Assembly: GCF_001677475.2 (NCBI RefSeq)
Contig: NZ_CP015229.1
From: Escherichia coli
GTDB lineage: Bacteria; Pseudomonadota; Gammaproteobacteria; Enterobacterales; Enterobacteriaceae
Length of the DNA stretch: 64,000 bases
Reading direction: 5' to 3' (one strand)
The position numbers and the translations under genes were made by a program. The notes beneath the pieces were generated by a model. The model saw only the letters and a program-made list of their open reading frames with translations, did no database searches and was not told the origin of the DNA. Numbering within the stretch: position 1 is the first letter of the stretch; the number at the start of each line of letters is the position of its first letter. This document shows positions 54,467-61,137 of the stretch, piece by piece.

Positions 54467-55027
54467 ATGCTGATCGGCTATGTACGCGTATCAACAAATG
54501 AACAAAACACTGCTTTGCAACGAAATGCCCTTGAAAGCGCAGGATGTGAGCTAATTTTTGAGGATAAGGCGAGCGGCAAAAAGACTGAACGCCCTGGGCT
54601 AAAAAAGGTTTTGCGTATGCTTTCCAGAGGTGACACCCTGGTCGTATGGAAGTTAGATCGTCTTGGGCGCAGCATGCGTCACTTGGTTGTGCTGGTGGAA
54701 GAGCTGCGTGACAGAGGAATTAATTTCCGGAGTCTCACTGACTCTATCGACACCAGTACACCAATGGGGCGTTTTTTCTTTCACGTAATGGGGGCGCTGG
54801 CTGAAATGGAACGCGAGCTTATCGTTGAACGTACACGCGCTGGACTTGATGCAGCTCGCGCAGAAGGTCGAATAGGAGGCCGTCGGCCTAAATACCAAGA
54901 AGAAACATGGCAGCAAATGCGTCGATTGCTGGAGAATGGCATCCCCCGTAAGCAGGTTGCAATCATCTATGATGTTGCTGTTTCCACGCTTTATAAAAAG
55001 TTTCCTGCGTCATCATTTCAATCCTAA
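54467..55027 (+). CDS. cin: Cin serine invertase
   Basis: 186 aa; MLIGYVRVSTNEQ... catalytic Ser and C-terminal HTH typical of the Gin/Hin/Cin family; stop lies inside cixL. Confidence 0.92.
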   Translation: MLIGYVRVSTNEQNTALQRNALESAGCELIFEDKASGKKTERPGLKKVLRMLSRGDTLVVWKLDRLGRSMRHLVVLVEELRDRGINFRSLTDSIDTSTPMGRFFFHVMGALAEMERELIVERTRAGLDAARAEGRIGGRRPKYQEETWQQMRRLLENGIPRKQVAIIYDVAVSTLYKKFPASSFQS

Positions 55028-55044
55028 ACCTTGGTTTAAGAGAA
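55019..55044. other. cixL crossover site of the invertible C segment
   Basis: CAATCCTAAACC-TT-GGTTTAAGAGAA, a 26-bp site with inverted 12-bp arms and AAACC..GGTTT core. Confidence 0.7.
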
Positions 55045-55074
55045 CTCGGTACCAGCGGTGAAAAGATCCCCCTG

Positions 55075-56676
55075 TTGAGCACGGCTAACACATGGAGTGC
55101 GCGCCAGACTTTCAACGGCGGGATCACCGGAGCGCTGACAGGGAACGCCGATACCGCAACGAAATTGAAAACAGCCAGAAACATTAATGGCGTCAGGTTC
55201 GATGGTTCTGGTGACATTAATATCAATACTATGGTATCGCGTGGTCGCGTAACGGCTCTGGGGGCGAATGCACAGGGGACATCCGGGATTCAGCTGTATG
55301 AGGCATACAACAATGGCTACCCTTCCCCCTATGGCAATGTGCTTCACCTTAAAGGTGCCACCGCTGCTGGCGAAGGTGAGTTATTCATTGGCTGGAGTGG
55401 CACGAGTGGTGACCATGCGCCCGTACATATCCGTTCGCGGCGGGATACTGATTCTGCTAACTGGTCTGAATGGGCGCAGGTCTATACGTCAAAAGATTCC
55501 GTTCCCGGCGTTAATGCCAAAGGGAATCAGGACACCTCTGGTAATGCGGCTACAGCGACTAAATTGCAGACAGCATGTACTATTAACGGTGTCTCGTTTG
55601 ATGGTTCTAAAAACATTGAGTTAACGGCGGAAGATTTAAATCTACAGGAATTCATTAATAAAGCAAATAATGCCGTTCAGCGTTCAGGCGATATCTTGTC
55701 CGGCGGGCTTACTTTTGAAAATGACTCAATCCTTGCCTGGATTCGAAATACTGACTGGGCAAAGATTGGATTTAAAAATGATGCCGACAGCGATACTGAT
55801 TCATACATGTGGTTTGAAACAGGCGACAACGGAAATGAATATTTCAAATGGAGAAGCCGCCAGAGCACCACAACAAAAGACCTGATGAATCTTAAATGGG
55901 ATGCTTTGTCTGTCCTTGTTAAAGCCCTTTTCAGCAGTGAAGTAAAAATATCGACAGTCAATGCACTGAGGATATTTAATTCATCTTTTGGTGCTATTTT
56001 TCGTCGCTCTGAAGAATGCCTGCATATCATCCCTACACGAGAGAATGAGGGAGAAAATGGTGATATAGGGCCACTACGCCCCTTTACGCTTAATCTCAGA
56101 ACTGGTCGGATAAGCATGGGGCATGGTCTGGATGTTACAGGAGATATAACAACTAACGCCTGGGTGTATGCAAACAGGTTTGCTATTAATAGTGGCTCAA
56201 CCTCATGGATTGATATGCGAAACCAGAATGTCATTTTTGGTAGAAACGCAGTATCAACAAGTTCTGCGCAGGCTTTGTTAAGACAAGACCATGCAGAACG
56301 CAAATTTTTTGTCGGTGGACTTGGTAACTACCAGTTTGGTTTTTACATGATTAATAATTCAAGGACAGCCAATGGCACCGATGGTCAGGCGTACATGGAT
56401 AATAACGGAAACTGGCTTTGCGGTGCGCAAGTTATTCCCGGCAACTATGGCAATTTTGATTCCAGATATGTGAAAGATGTTCGACTTGGTTCACAGCAAT
56501 ATTATGGAGTGAACAACTGGCAAACATGGAATTTCCAGTGCCCGTCAGGTCATGTATTGTCTGGTATTAATGTTCAGGATACAGGGTCCAACTCTGCCGA
56601 TAATATAGCTGGCGTTTATTACAGACCCGTTCAAAAGTATATAAATGGCACCTGGTATAATGTAGCGAGCGTTTAA
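55075..56676 (+). CDS. alternative tail-fibre C-terminal segment (Sv'-like), currently not fused to the constant part
   Basis: 533 aa beginning inside the inverted repeat ([33 protein letters not shown]...); the apparent TTG start is an ORF-finder artefact. Confidence 0.7.
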
Positions 56677-56677
56677 T

Positions 56678-57205
56678 ATGATGCACTTAAAGAACATAAA
56701 AGCGGGTAACGCTAAAACACTGGAACAGTATGAGTTAACAAAGAAACACGGAGTTATCTGGCTTTACTCTGAGGACGGAAAAAACTGGTATGAGGAAGTG
56801 AAAAACTTTCAGCCAGACACAATAAAGATTGTTTACGATGCAAATAATATTATTGTCGCCATCACTAAAGATGCCTCCACGCTTAACCCTGAAGGTTTTA
56901 GCGTCGTTGAGGTTCCCGATATAACAGCCAACCGCCGCGCTGATGATTCAGGAAAGTGGATGTTTAAGGATGGAGCTGTAGTTAAACGGATTTATACGGC
57001 AGACGAACAGCAACAACAAGCCGAATCACAAAAGGCCGCATTGCTTTCCGAAGCTGAATCAGTCATTCAGCCGCTGGAACGCGCTGTCAGGCTGAATATG
57101 GCAACAGACGAGGAACGCACACGACTGGAAGCATGGGAACGCTACAGTGTTCTGGTCAGCCGTGTGGATACGGCAAATCCTGAATGGCCACAAAAGCCTG
57201 AATAA
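56678..57205 (+). CDS. tail-fibre assembly chaperone (U'-like)
   Basis: 175 aa [10 protein letters not shown]..., paralog of the 57234-57767 protein. Confidence 0.7.
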
Positions 57206-57233: not shown

Positions 57234-57767
57234 TCATTCAGGTTGTTCGGGAAATGTTACTGGCAGGCTGGAGGTGTCTGTAGATTCGACTTTCTGCGCA
57301 TAGAGCATCCACTCGGTTAATTTTTGTTTATTCTCGTCGGAAAGGATGCCCAGCCGTAGCTGTGAGTCCCATAGCTGGGTTTTATCCCTGACAAGTTGCA
57401 ACAGGCTTTGCTTTTCATTCTCTGCCTGCTGCCTCTGTTCCTCCTCGGTATAAGTTCGCTTTATCACTACGCCATCTTTGAACATCCATTTACCCGAAAT
57501 ATCAGCCCGGCGATTTGCTGTAATATCAGGAACCTCAACGACGCTTGCGCCTTCTGGATTAATTGCTGAAACATCCTTTTCAATACAAATAATAACGTTG
57601 TTGTGGTCATAGACCATTTTCAACGTATCAGGCTGAAAGTTCTTTTGTTCCTCATACCAGTTTTTCCCATCCTCTGTATAAAGCCATTTGATGTTAAATT
57701 GTTTCGTTAGCTGGTATTGCTCTTTTGTTTTAGGGTTGCCAGCAGTAATATTTTTTAAGTGCATCAT
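57234..57767 (-). CDS. tail-fibre assembly chaperone (U-like), expressed orientation
   Basis: 177 aa [10 protein letters not shown]...; directly downstream of S on the minus strand. Confidence 0.75.
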
Positions 57768-57769
57768 AA

Positions 57770-60691
57770 TTAAATACTCCCCGCGTTATACCACGTTCCA
57801 TTAATGCAATACTGAATTGGCCTTGCCTGAGTTGTATCAATTAATTCATCACGGTTTCCGTTAACTGAACCCGTAACGACATAACCTGACCTGTCAGACC
57901 AGCCGGGACCATTCCATGTCTGAACAGATGACAGACCGCCAAGGCGAATACCTGTAATAAACCTTGAGTTACATTCTGCCTGCGTATATGCACCAACATC
58001 TCCTGCTGATGGCTTGCGTGTTGTGGTGTAAAATTCTGACCAGTCAGCTTCGAATCCGTAACCATCACGCGCTGAACGATAAAAAATACCACCGTTCCTG
58101 TAATTCACGCGGAACTGTACAGCAGGGCAGCTCCCCGTATTCATATTGAAGTGGAGGATTAATGTCGATGCGCCACCAATGATTGCGTTATAGACCCCGC
58201 TATTCCAGTTCCAGCCAACAGCTTTATCATTTCCGACAGTGCTTCCTGTTTGCCCTAAAGCAAATGCAGGTTGCTGATTTTTCGTGTTGTAGTCACGCCG
58301 CCAGCCTGGCGCATAATCTCCACCGTGGTTTATATAAGTAAATTGTGCATTAGTAGTTCCGCCACCGCTGGAAGTGCTTGGTGTTGTTACACGGATGGTC
58401 ATGGCACCTTTATTACCCATAACCTCAATAACGCAACCTGCAAGATGAATAGTTCCACAGCCAGTATCGGTAATAATTTTATTATTGCCGTATGACCATG
58501 AACATTTGCACATCCAGTATGGGTGATTGAATGCCCCTTGAGAATCCAGCCATTCAATCAATTGTGCTGTTGTCCAGTTACCTGCCCCTGTACTAATAGC
58601 ACTGTGAAAAGCGCGACATGCACCAATATTTTTGGTGAAGGTATCTTTTCCTGGAATATCCGCGCCGTTCTGGTTTTTCTGTAATGCTCCTACGGCTAAT
58701 TCTACGGTTTGCTCAAGATTTAAATCTTCCGCCGTTAGCTCAATGTTTTTAGAACCATCAAACGAGACACCGTTAATAGTACGTGCTGTCTGCAATTTGG
58801 TCGCTGTAGCCGCATTACCAGAGGTGTCCTGATTCCCTTTGGCATTAACGCCGGGAACGGAGTCTTTTGACGTATAGATCTGTGCCCATTCGGACCATGC
58901 CGCAGCAGTGCTATCTCTTTTGGATCGAATGAAAGCAGGTGCATGAGCGCCATTTGTGCCACTCCAGCCAATGAGCAACTCGCCTTCACCAGTTGATGCA
59001 GCTCCCTTCAGGTGAAGTACATTCCCGTAAGTCGTCGGATAACCATTGTTGTATGCCTCATACATCTGCAATCCAGTAGCAGCACCTTGCGTTGTACCGG
59101 TAAGCGCAGTAACGCGTCCTCTAGACGTAATTGTTGGTATCGAAATGTTCGTAGAACCATCGAACCTGACGCCATTAATATTTATGGCTGTTTTTAATTT
59201 CGTCGCGGTGTCGGCGTTCCCTGTCAGCGCCCCGGTGATCCCGCCGTTGAAAGTCTGGCGCGCACTCCATGTGTTAGCCGTACTCAACAGGGGGATCTTT
59301 TCACCGCTGGTACCGAGTTCTCTTAAACCAAGGTATTGGATAACGGCCAGTGTGCTTGTTTTAGCCAGAATATCGCGACCGACTGACGTTAAATCAGTCT
59401 GAGCTACCGTATCCTTACCAGTAAAATAAGGCAGTTTGTTTGCACCAGTCGCAAGGGCCGCGAGAGCGGTTAAAGTTGCATCCAGAGGCTGTTTGCCTGC
59501 CAGCGCATTTGTCATTGTTGTCGCAAAGTTCGGGTCATTGCCAAGTGCTGCGGCAAGCTCATTCAGGGTATCAAGAGCTTCTGGTGATGAACCAACCAGT
59601 GCGGATATGGCAGCTCTTACATAAGCGGTCGTAGCAATCTGCGTATTATTTGTGCCCTGTGCGGCGGTCGGCGCAGTAGGGACACCCGTTAATGCAGGGC
59701 TTGCCAAAGGCGCTTTGAGAGCCAGGGCATTGTTGATAGTTGTGCTGAAATTCGGGTCGTTATTGATCGCAGCCGCTATTTCTTTCAGCGTATCCAGTGT
59801 GCCAGGCGCACCGTTGATAAGTGCAGTTATAGCTGCCTTAACAAAGGCTGTATTTGCGATCTGCGTGCTGTTTGTACCTTGCGCTGCCGTCGGCGCGGTT
59901 GGCGTTCCTGTCAGACTCGGGCTTTCTATTGGCGCTTTGGTATCAGCCAGATCCTTTACAGACTTAACGGCTTTAGGGGTCGCCGCCATTGTTTCGCTGT
60001 CGCTGTTAGTTTCGCTACTGAGCTGAACTAATCCCTTTTGCGTTGTGCTTGCATCCTGCGCCGTATACTTGCTTTTTGCCAGATCGTAGGCTTTTTTAAC
60101 TGCCAGCGAACTTGCAGCAACATCACTTCTACTACTGGTTACAGAGTCTGAAATATCAATGCCGATCGTGCGGTTAATACGCTCGGATGTATCAATCATC
60201 TCCTGGGTAATGGCTGATACGCCAGCAGGGATATTCACCGTACAAACAAGCAGCTCCCCATCTCCTAACTGATATGAATCGGTATAGGTTCTGGCAACAA
60301 ATTCAGCCGCATGAATATGTGACGCGGTATTAACCTGATAGGTATCCTCTCCAAGGAGGTATCTTCCCTTCAGCACAATTGCATATTTCTTGCCTGCACT
60401 AAGTGCAAGAGAAATATCCTTACGGTGCTGAATAGTTACCTGGTAGAATTCACCAATATCCACCGACGCCGCGCCTGCGGTTTTATCACCATCCACTGAG
60501 GTGATTAACAGGTTCATCCCACCGCCAGGCTTAGGTAAGAAACCGGCATAAAATCCCGGGTCAACAATCCCCCTGAATTTTCGGTTTAGCGCGGCTGACA
60601 GATATGGTTCGTGGTATTGCACATCAGCCACCAGAGCCAACGACTCGGGTGATGGGGAAGTAACCGATGTGACAACTGTAACGTCATTCAT
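57770..60691 (-). CDS. tail fibre protein S (constant part fused to the Sv variable part)
   Basis: 973 aa from ATG 60691 (AAGGA upstream); track ORF extends to 60778 through an in-frame upstream start overlapping R; crosses cixR. Confidence 0.85.
59318..59343. other. cixR crossover site
   Basis: TTCTCTTAAACC-AA-GGTATTGGATAA, inverted relative to cixL. Confidence 0.7.
59480..59930 (-). repeat. internal tandem duplication (about 2 x 216 bp) within the S gene
   Basis: two consecutive ~72-aa blocks ([59 protein letters not shown]... and [59 protein letters not shown]...); coordinates approximate. Confidence 0.5.
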
Positions 60692-60702
60692 CAAACATAT
60701 CC

Positions 60703-61137
60703 TTATGCTGTAGTCGTGTTTATGGCCATAACTGCGGTATATGTTTTGCCCACATACAGCGAGTCTTCCTGGACACAAATAATGGCGATTGGCTTGTTCT
60801 CGTTATCCAGAACAACCAGAGTGTTGAATGGGTAGTTTTTCCCTTCCTGCAACTGGCTTTGATCAAGGTCCATTCGGACAGTAATTATCCCGCCTGAGTA
60901 GGTTGGGACGAGGTTGATGGTGCAAAATTGACTGGTCAGTTCTGCCAGATCGAAAGCCTTTGGCAGTTCTCCAATCTCATAAGTGCCATCTCCTTTCTTA
61001 GTAACCAGTGAACTGGTACCGAAAACGGCCTTGCTGATTAAAAATCGAGAGCCTTTGTTAATGGACGATTCAGCGCGCCGCTGATAGTAATAGTCCAACA
61101 ACTGACTCTTATAGAGGTTTGTTGAGACGTCAGACAT
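60703..61137 (-). CDS. tail-fibre-associated protein (R-like)
   Basis: 144-aa track ORF immediately upstream of S. Confidence 0.55.
   Translation of the reverse strand: MSDVSTNLYKSQLLDYYYQRRAESSINKGSRFLISKAVFGTSSLVTKKGDGTYEIGELPKAFDLAELTSQFCTINLVPTYSGGIITVRMDLDQSQLQEGKNYPFNTLVVLDNENKPIAIICVQEDSLYVGKTYTAVMAINTTTA

Follow-up and report, generated by a model that had tools for sequence, protein, structure and literature searches.

Gene S, the P1-like tail-fibre gene in the 64-kb stretch of Escherichia coli DNA analysed here (the window), carries two abutting 74-residue units, b1 and b2, which are an ancient duplication and not a recent DNA repeat. The best explanation, to which we assign a probability of about 85%, is an old tandem pair of shaft modules in the constant part of S that is held by constraint on the protein and from which variant arrays would have arisen by rare recombination. 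This reading builds on direct observation of the anatomy, age, orthology, copy-number variants and junctions of the units. The pair is already known, being annotated in P1 as repeated elements, and nothing essential differs in the window. For the window itself it carries little weight, having long been annotated in gene S of P1 and belonging to a type of modular fibre repeat that is very common.

Organisation of gene S

The phage in the window is a P7/RCS47-like relative and not P1 itself; over its full length its S gene has 93% nucleotide identity to S of RCS47 and of P7, and its variable part differs from that of P1. The S protein of P1 is part of the virion and is the determinant of specificity (PMC9024508). 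We place the start of the gene at an ATG preceded by AAGGA; a longer ORF of 1002 aa, which opens at a TTG at position 60778 and overlaps gene R, probably does not mark the real start of S. The last 325 aa of S match the tip of the Mu S/S' fibre, a solved structure (8ju3). The limits of the constant part, Sc, were transferred from the P1/P7 annotation. It ends at the Cin crossover site cixR, an exact 20-nt match to the annotated P1 site, which lies 140 nt downstream of b2 in the sense of S. This match and the P1/P7 annotation bear out the location given to the blocks by an earlier sequence-only reading of the window, in the constant part of a P1-like tail-fibre S.

Directly upstream of b1 are the elements a1 and a0, mapped from M81956, which are repeats of the Pfam Phage_fiber_2 type. 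S contains in them a second kind of short tandem repeat, which likewise differs in copy number from one P1-like S gene to another. The S protein scores 100.9 bits against PF03406 (Phage_fiber_2), and the best stretch, aa 215-254, covers the upstream a elements but not the b units. The b units (aa 257-404) fall outside the PF03406 match and do not reach its gathering score, and none of the Pfam and NCBIfam models gave a match to them. The pair lies in the constant N-terminal half of S, between a baseplate-proximal domain that includes the a repeats (Phage_fiber_2) and the C-terminus, which is Cin-invertible and binds the receptor.

Table 1. Positions in the window of gene S and of the elements discussed in the text.
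Feature	Position	Strand	Remarks
Tail-fibre gene S	57770-60691	-	973 aa from ATG at 60691
Sc, constant part of S	59331-60691	-	upstream of the Cin crossover
a0, repeated element	60068-60103	-	a1 and a0 together 59936-60103
a1, repeated element	59936-60067	-	
b1 unit	59702-59923	-	222 nt/74 aa; ends ALALKAPLA; GenBank phase 59714-59935
b2 unit	59480-59701	-	222 nt/74 aa; ends ALAGKQPLD; GenBank phase 59492-59713
8-mer ACGCAGAT in b1	59859-59866	-	unit nt 58-65; junction zone of the b2-head/b1-tail chimeras of relatives
8-mer ACGCAGAT in b2	59637-59644	-	
8-mer GCGCCGAC in b1	59889-59896	-	unit nt 28-35; junction zone of the b1-head/b2-tail unit of pEC17CM12_1
8-mer GCGCCGAC in b2	59667-59674	-	
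cixR, Cin crossover site	59321-59340	.	ends the constant part
cixL	55022-55041		partner of cixR

The two units align without gaps, with 51 of 74 residues identical (69%); in a composition-adjusted BLASTP comparison the E value is 6e-35, for an alignment of 73 residues that contains no gap. The consecutive blocks noted by the sequence-only reading, at an estimated ~72 aa each, are therefore present where it put them, with a true length of 74 aa. The ungapped nucleotide identity of 62.2% is ∼10 SD above the 27.5 ± 3.4% obtained when b1 is compared with every other 222-nt window of S in frame. A profile made from the two units and run over the whole 64 kb finds exactly two full-length, abutting units.

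Age of the duplication and state of the DNA

Identity between b1 and b2 is 78%, 80% and 28% at codon positions 1, 2 and 3 respectively, with dN of 0.25 and synonymous sites that are saturated (pS = 0.84). Given the two proteins and the codon usage, random synonymous codon choice predicts a nucleotide identity of 62.3 ± 2.0%, which is the value observed, and the longest exact run that the units share in register is 8 nt. The DNA is too diverged for repeat finders to detect the pair; Tandem Repeats Finder reported no arrays at a minimum score of 30, and of the 40 families from a repeat-family search (find_repeats, seed 7) the 20 largest included none with 222-nt spacing. From a nucleotide identity that the protein alone explains, the saturated synonymous sites, the 8-nt maximum run and the failure of repeat finders to register the units, we conclude that the duplication is ancient. 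It had been suggested that the underlying DNA is visibly repeated. Its identity does stand far above background, but only to the extent that protein similarity forces it to.

Since the pair is ancient and, as described below, orthologously kept, in the window it represents a stable, protein-constrained feature and no active DNA repeat. The long near-identical copies that would mark an active tandem repeat, of the slippage or contingency type, are absent from the window and occur only in the three- and four-unit arrays of relatives. With at most 8 nt in common, b1 and b2 make a poor recombination substrate in the two-unit state. As only constraint on the protein holds it, the two-unit array is not to be regarded as an unstable DNA repeat.

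Prior annotation and orthologues

The features 'repeated element b1/b2' are annotated in the P1 GenBank records M81956 and AF234173, and it is on such feature tables that we base the statement that the pair was known before. The M81956 annotation maps on to the window without gaps, in the same gene, with the same order of elements (a0/a1, b1, b2, cixR) and the same unit length of 222 bp. The P1 annotation (M81956, AF234172/AF234173) reportedly derives from the work of Sandmeier, Iida and Arber in 1992 and of Lobocka et al. in 2004.

Comparison with P1 gives nucleotide identities of 99.1% for b1 and 90.1% for b2, so that each unit of the window resembles the corresponding P1 unit more than it does the adjacent one, as orthologues should; the b2 unit is closer still to that of SJ46 (99.5%). 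The same orthologous pair is found in P1, P7, RCS47, D6, SJ46, JL22 and Ro157c2YLVW. Across the window phage and these seven relatives, orthologous b1 units are 82-100% and orthologous b2 units 88-100% identical in nucleotide sequence, whereas b1 and b2 are 58-63% identical to each other in every genome. The sequence-only reading had itself named diverged blocks in relatives as evidence against a DNA repeat, and all seven relatives show both blocks in that state; on this point its proposal is not supported. Every P1-, P7- and D6-type S gene that was examined and carries b units has the pair in collinear, orthologous form. Two P1-like records, 813R1 and 673R5, lack b units and have Phage_fiber_2 arrays at that position; both contain clear frameshift errors in S.

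Copy-number variants in relatives

A comparison of copy number among P1-like relatives, proposed as a check by the sequence-only reading, yields arrays of one, three and four units besides the usual two, in frame and in register, in P1-like and D6-like plasmids and phages. Three units are present in the P1-like phage phi456, in NZ_CP122864 and in at least nine complete E. coli records in which the chimeric unit described below is at least 99% identical. Four are found in pCombat11I9-3, pPSS-08-1_2, GZ2408P P2 and pEC213_2. All of the three- and four-unit S genes are annotated as intact CDS. A single unit is seen in pEC17CM12_1 only, where S terminates prematurely with frameshifted fragments behind it, suggesting that this may be a decaying gene. 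Among 120 protein clusters listed, 37 have three units and 3 have four; extra units appear in ∼5 of 60 sampled rows and a single unit in 1 of 60, these frequencies being row-level samples and lower bounds among ∼370 E. coli records, for which search summary counts hide 222-nt indels. No reports on b-unit copy-number variation were found in the searchable literature, outside which the 1992 and 2004 papers lie.

All of the extra units are chimeras with the head of b2 and the tail of b1, joined at an 8-nt identity in the zone of ACGCAGAT, and the order in the three-unit arrays is b1, b2 head/b1 tail, b2. Junctions of the variant arrays are located at ACGCAGAT and at GCGCC. Only in arrays of three or more do neighbouring units share long exact identities, of 47-206 nt. 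Complete genomes whose sources are pigs, chicken, water, seawater and patients in different countries share the chimeric unit at 99.3-100% identity. Behind it there could be very few events, which recombination then distributed, and not repeated origins.

These junctions suggest a route by which the arrays may have formed. Unequal recombination, rare and in register, at the 8-nt stretches that b1 and b2 share would give both a one-unit array (b1 head/b2 tail) and a three-unit array; from three units on, the exact identity between neighbours would permit homologous unequal crossing-over, and hence four units. The earlier idea that the duplication is a substrate for expansion and contraction is supported in that variant arrays do exist in relatives, but the two-unit state offers no more than 8 nt, and it is these that the observed rearrangements have used.

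The b unit as a widespread fibre module

The 74-aa unit is shared with fibre proteins of unrelated phages. By tblastn it matches 788 phage records, and in PHROG it matches phrog_454 (E = 2e-104) and 31 further families, 32 in total. At E ≤ 1e-3 the representative proteins that contain it number 38,967, and the longest arrays reach 9-11 full units. The families that share it include lambda Stf, P2 H and the minor tail proteins of actinophages. Lambda Stf (orf-401/orf-314) has one b2-like unit, whereas S in the window has two, and the H fibres of P2-like phages carry units that are 82-85% identical to b2. The flanking domains and the mode of virion attachment differ between these fibres and P1-type S.

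Alternative explanations

A recent tandem duplication, still a substrate for homologous recombination or slippage in this genome, would account for two blocks that are 69% identical in protein and 62% in register in DNA, and for copy number that varies among relatives. Its recency is refuted, however, by third codon positions that agree at only 28% and by a saturated pS of 0.84. The nucleotide identity likewise equals the protein-only expectation, the longest shared run is 8 nt, no array or 222-nt-spaced family appears in the Tandem Repeats Finder output or among the 20 families listed, and the same diverged pair recurs in P1, P7, D6 and others; we consider this explanation most improbable. 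The bias in composition towards A, T, P and N could in principle produce similarity by chance or low complexity in this Ala/Thr/Pro-rich fibre sequence, but the composition-adjusted E value and the occurrence of exactly two full-length abutting units in 64 kb refute this, and its probability is practically nil. It is also very unlikely that the array is always of two units and that the others are artefacts of assembly. Repeats are a classic source of assembly error, and the 813R1 and 673R5 records do carry frameshifts in S; yet the near-identical chimeric unit comes from complete genomes of different sources and countries, the arrays are in frame in intact CDS with precise junctions at shared 8-mers, and b1 and b2, at 62% identity, are too diverged for an assembler to confuse.

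A different history deserves some weight, as a possible if less probable one: that the b units reached S of the P1 lineage by horizontal exchange of fibre modules, singly or as a b1-b2 cassette, the duplication having taken place in an older fibre gene. The b2 protein is nearer to units of unrelated phages (85% identical in 503458 and HQ103, both P2-like; 82% in the second unit of S164; 79% in lambda Stf) than to b1 (69%). Moreover, in the P2-like phage S164 a b2-like unit comes after a b1-like one, tandem arrays of the b unit are common in diverse proteins, and P1-like 813R1 and 673R5 have Phage_fiber_2 arrays where b units would be expected. On the other hand, such an exchange is inseparable from an ancient duplication in situ followed by export, and the collinear, orthologous pair in all examined P1-, P7- and D6-type S genes other than those two speaks against it. 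An ancient tandem pair, kept by its protein, remains the reading that we prefer.

Structural role and possible function

The unit appears to consist of a non-helical half with the pattern SPxLTGxPTAPTAxxGTNxTQIATTAFV, followed by a helical half. One b unit may correspond to one structural segment of a trimeric shaft, in which case copy number would set the length of the shaft, a reasonable proposal. Both the division into halves and the equation of one unit with one segment are based on low-confidence secondary structure prediction and on the resemblance in sequence to fibres of solved structure. An AF2 monomer model made with a 21-sequence alignment had a pLDDT of 44.6, and a pseudo-trimer of three copies joined by 25-Gly linkers, made with a 13-sequence alignment, had a pLDDT of 30.3; both are unusable.

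If copy number does set shaft length, it may also influence host range. One might then envisage a naturally segregating fibre-length polymorphism of P1-type phages (1-4 b units), born of microhomology, amplified by crossing-over and kept because hosts differ in their surface layers (LPS core, O-antigen, capsule) and the reach of the fibre affects adsorption to them, but we put this forward only tentatively and think it rather unlikely. The P1- and D6-like plasmids with one, three and four units and clean chimeric junctions provide a natural series in which to relate shaft length to adsorption and host range, and in P1-derived delivery vehicles the number of units could serve as an engineering handle.

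Two solved trimeric fibres offer structural points of reference. Residues 194-261 of the tail collar fibre gp4 of mycobacteriophage Bxb1 (PDB 9D93) align with b2 in its helical half and with the stretch after it (E = 2e-9), and residues 187-226 of the fibre gp24 of cyanopodophage A4 (PDB 9K09) align with the SPxLTG...IATTAxV half (E = 0.009), just after a second, weak and non-significant match to the motif at residues 151-186. The likeness of Bxb1 gp4 and A4 gp24 to the b unit is one of sequence only, and they belong to unrelated virion architectures. In the adenovirus fibre, the shaft is built of pseudo-repeats, the number of which sets the length of the fibre. Pseudomonas tailocins have fibre length haplotypes, and the sensitivity of a target strain to a given tailocin correlates with the target's own haplotype (bioRxiv 10.1101/2023.04.17.536465). 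Unrelated to the b units in the sequence of their repeats, the adenovirus and tailocin fibres nevertheless have a modular shaft with natural length variants, as is proposed here for S.

The b1/b2 pair and its setting

The tail-fibre operon that occupies this region belongs to a P1-like phage or plasmid prophage; gene S is followed by U, after which U′ and Sv′ of the Cin-invertible C segment lie in inverted orientation. S is 93% identical in nucleotide sequence, over its full length, to the S genes of RCS47 and P7, and its constant part, Sc, upstream of the Cin crossover site cixR, shares ∼95% identity with the P1 record for Sc (GenBank M81956). Translation of S probably starts at ATG 60691, which is preceded by AAGGA and agrees with the P1 and P7 annotation; the mechanical reading frame begins at TTG 60778, inside R. 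The variable part of S has an internal repeat of its own, encoding GNA(D/A)TATKL(K/Q)TA..INGV.FDGS.

Features of the tail-fibre region in the window and of S genes in relatives
Feature	Position	Strand	Remarks
bplA, gene 16		minus	tail-fibre operon
R	60703-61137	minus	tail-fibre operon
S	57770-60691	minus	tail-fibre gene
a0	60068-60103		mapped from M81956
a1	59936-60067		mapped from M81956
b1, GenBank phase	59714-59935		mapped from M81956
b2, GenBank phase	59492-59713		mapped from M81956
b1	59923-59702	minus	74 aa
b2	59701-59480	minus	74 aa, abuts b1
cixR	59321-59340		exact 20-nt match to annotated P1 site
Repeat in variable part of S	58742-58819; 59144-59221	minus	aa 491-520 and 625-654; 402 nt apart, 72% nt identity over 78 nt
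U	57234-57767	minus	after S, between cix sites
U′	56678-57205	plus	inverted; between cix sites
Long inverted repeats	55021-55650; 58709-59341		83-87% complementary; common 5′ portions of Sv and Sv′, within C segment
cixL	55022-55041		inverted partner of cixR; differs at 2/20 positions
S without b units	813R1 (L005) 2172-5690; 673R5 (L004) 3876-5689		Phage_fiber_2-type array from shared N-terminal domain onward
S with one unit	pEC17CM12_1 (L016) 2330-5452		only one found; 154-kb plasmid

The sequence-only reading had placed two consecutive blocks of ∼72 residues at 59480-59930, and both the blocks and, to within 7 nt, their position are borne out; the unit is in fact 74 residues long. The two units, b1 and b2, align without gaps with 51 of 74 residues identical (BLASTP E = 6e-35), and a two-unit profile search of the whole window found exactly these two places. 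The duplication is already known. M81956, which covers R and the constant region of S in P1, carries the features 'repeated element b1' and 'repeated element b2', of 222 bp each, with 'a1' (132 bp) and 'a0' (36 bp) ahead of them, as does the complete P1 genome record. M81956 maps gaplessly onto the window, its b units beginning four codons earlier (APIE/APLA) than in the phase starting at 59923 and 59701, a choice that is arbitrary in a tandem repeat. The a elements match Pfam Phage_fiber_2, best over aa 215-254; the b unit is covered by no model in Pfam or NCBIfam.

Age and origin of the pair

The underlying DNA had also been described as visibly repeated, and in one sense this stands, since b1 and b2 are 62.2% identical without gaps, a value that far exceeds the 27.5 ± 3.4% obtained when b1 is set against other in-frame windows of S. 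All of this similarity, however, is explained by similarity of the protein. Identity at codon positions 1, 2 and 3 is 78%, 80% and 28%. Synonymous differences reach a proportion of 0.84, past saturation, with dN 0.25. Random synonymous codon draws, using the codon usage of neighbouring late genes, predict 62.3 ± 2.0% identity, which is what the DNA shows. In register, b1 and b2 share no exact run longer than 8 nt, a length reached by three 8-mers, GCGCCGAC, ACGCAGAT and GACCCGAA; Tandem Repeats Finder reported no array, and no 222-nt-spaced family is among the 20 largest listed by a repeat search. From the saturated synonymous sites, the match to the codon-draw expectation, the short runs and the missing array we conclude that the duplication is old and that the two-unit array is, mechanistically, not a DNA repeat at all; for this genome, the claim of a DNA repeat is wrong.

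Exactly two units are present in each of P1, P7, RCS47, D6, SJ46, JL22 and Ro157c2YLVW. Across these relatives orthologous b1s are 82-100% and orthologous b2s 88-100% identical in nucleotide sequence, whereas b1 and b2 share 58-63% within every genome compared; the pair is therefore older than the division between the P1 and D6 lineages. Two blocks present in relatives as diverged DNA is also the outcome that the sequence-only reading had named as refuting its claim. b2 is nearer to units of unrelated phages (85% in P2-like 503458 and HQ103, 79% in lambda Stf) than to b1, and P2-like phage S164 has a b1-like followed by a b2-like unit. These likenesses indicate exchange of the pair, or of its members, between fibre genes; the duplication may have occurred in the P1 lineage or earlier.

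No b unit is found in S of two P1-like phages, 813R1 and 673R5, where long a-type arrays instead join the sequence (...LPYFTG) that follows b2 elsewhere. In both, S is broken up into several overlapping 'fragment' CDS, apparently owing to frameshift errors within repetitive sequence.

Copy number in relatives

The array was further proposed as a substrate for expansion and contraction, and this holds for arrays of this kind, with one, three and four units in relatives. Three units occur in phage phi456, in NZ_CP122864 and in at least nine complete E. coli records carrying a chimeric unit (b2-type head, b1-type tail) at ≥99%, and four in pCombat11I9-3, pPSS-08-1_2, GZ2408P plasmid P2 and pEC213_2. 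A sample of 60, spread over the 369 complete E. coli genome records that matched, contains ∼43 with two units (full-length, single-piece, single-place matches), ∼5 with extra places and one with a one-unit span; as a rough estimate, about 1 in 10 arrays differ from two units. Three units are present in 37, and four in three, of the 120 best protein clusters for an Sc query, a list skewed to higher unit numbers because bit scores add up.

Over nt 1-65 the middle unit of phi456 equals P7/D6-type b2 exactly, and from nt 58 on it is almost the same as P1 b1, placing the junction within ACGCAGAT, which is among the three shared 8-mers. E. coli plasmids from pigs, chicken, water, seawater and patients carry this chimeric type at 99.3-100% identity. 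All extra units combine a b1 tail with a b2-type or other non-b1 head; the heads (SPALTGI, SPALTGV, SPAFTGT) and the surroundings of the junction vary by lineage, suggestive of multiple events or of subsequent exchange. The sole unit of pEC17CM12_1 is of the reciprocal type, b1 head and b2 tail, joined at about nt 28-32 at a GCGCC microhomology. Its S gene stops after ∼744 residues and is followed by frameshifted fibre fragments, and so may be a decaying prophage fibre gene.

Array changes in relatives involve whole units, in register and in frame, and the first-step products have their junctions at two of the three longest identities between b1 and b2. Where three or four units are present, neighbours have 47-206 nt exactly in common, compared with 8 nt in the two-unit array. 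A two-step route would accommodate these features: rare microhomology-mediated unequal exchange or template switching would take two units to three (or one), and the long identities so created would permit ordinary homologous unequal crossing-over from three to four. In phi456 the first unit, JL22-like, differs at six positions from the tail of the chimeric unit, which is P1-like; this fits exchange between two co-resident P1-like genomes. Each unit would lengthen the trimeric shaft by a fixed amount, and copy number might thereby tune the reach of the fibre. Beyond the known b1/b2 feature, the range of unit numbers in natural P1-like plasmids offers a minor addition that can be tested.

Other changes are seen in individual proteins. 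P0045 (residues 331-369), a partial protein from Salmonella Infantis, has a three-unit array whose middle unit carries an in-frame 27-residue internal deletion; its join comes after 'IN' on both sides (…ALIN|NALA…), which corresponds to the two ATCAAC hexamers of the b1 tail. Four P1-type S proteins, P0041-P0044, have ∼100 extra residues of a-type (Phage_fiber_2) repeats ahead of b1 (residues ∼215-356), so that copy number of the a array is variable too.

Distribution of the unit

The pair is ancient, is held by constraint at the protein level and is one case of a very common fibre module. The 74-residue unit matches 788 phage records, including enterobacterial, mycobacterial, Gordonia, Caulobacter and cyanophage fibres, 32 PHROG families and 38,967 representative proteins (E ≤ 1e-3), with 1 to 11 full-length units per protein in the best 150 of these representatives. 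Extreme cases include P0121 (1039 aa), whose array is made up of nine abutting full units and a truncated tenth.

A low-confidence secondary structure prediction gives each unit ∼20 non-helical residues followed by three helices. By sequence, the helical half matches the Bxb1 tail collar fibre gp4 (E = 2e-9) in the tail-tip structure 9D93, and the first half matches the cyanophage A4 fibre gp24 (E = 0.009), a trimer with a long three-helix stem (A4 structure paper, 9k09). The N-terminal half (SPxLTGxPTAPTAxxGTNxTQIATTAFV) also forms arrays on its own, with up to 23 matches. In P0122 (6556 aa) 11 full units lie mostly 150-290 residues apart, with some larger gaps, and in P0126 (1947 aa) the N-terminal half-motif by itself occurs 23 times.
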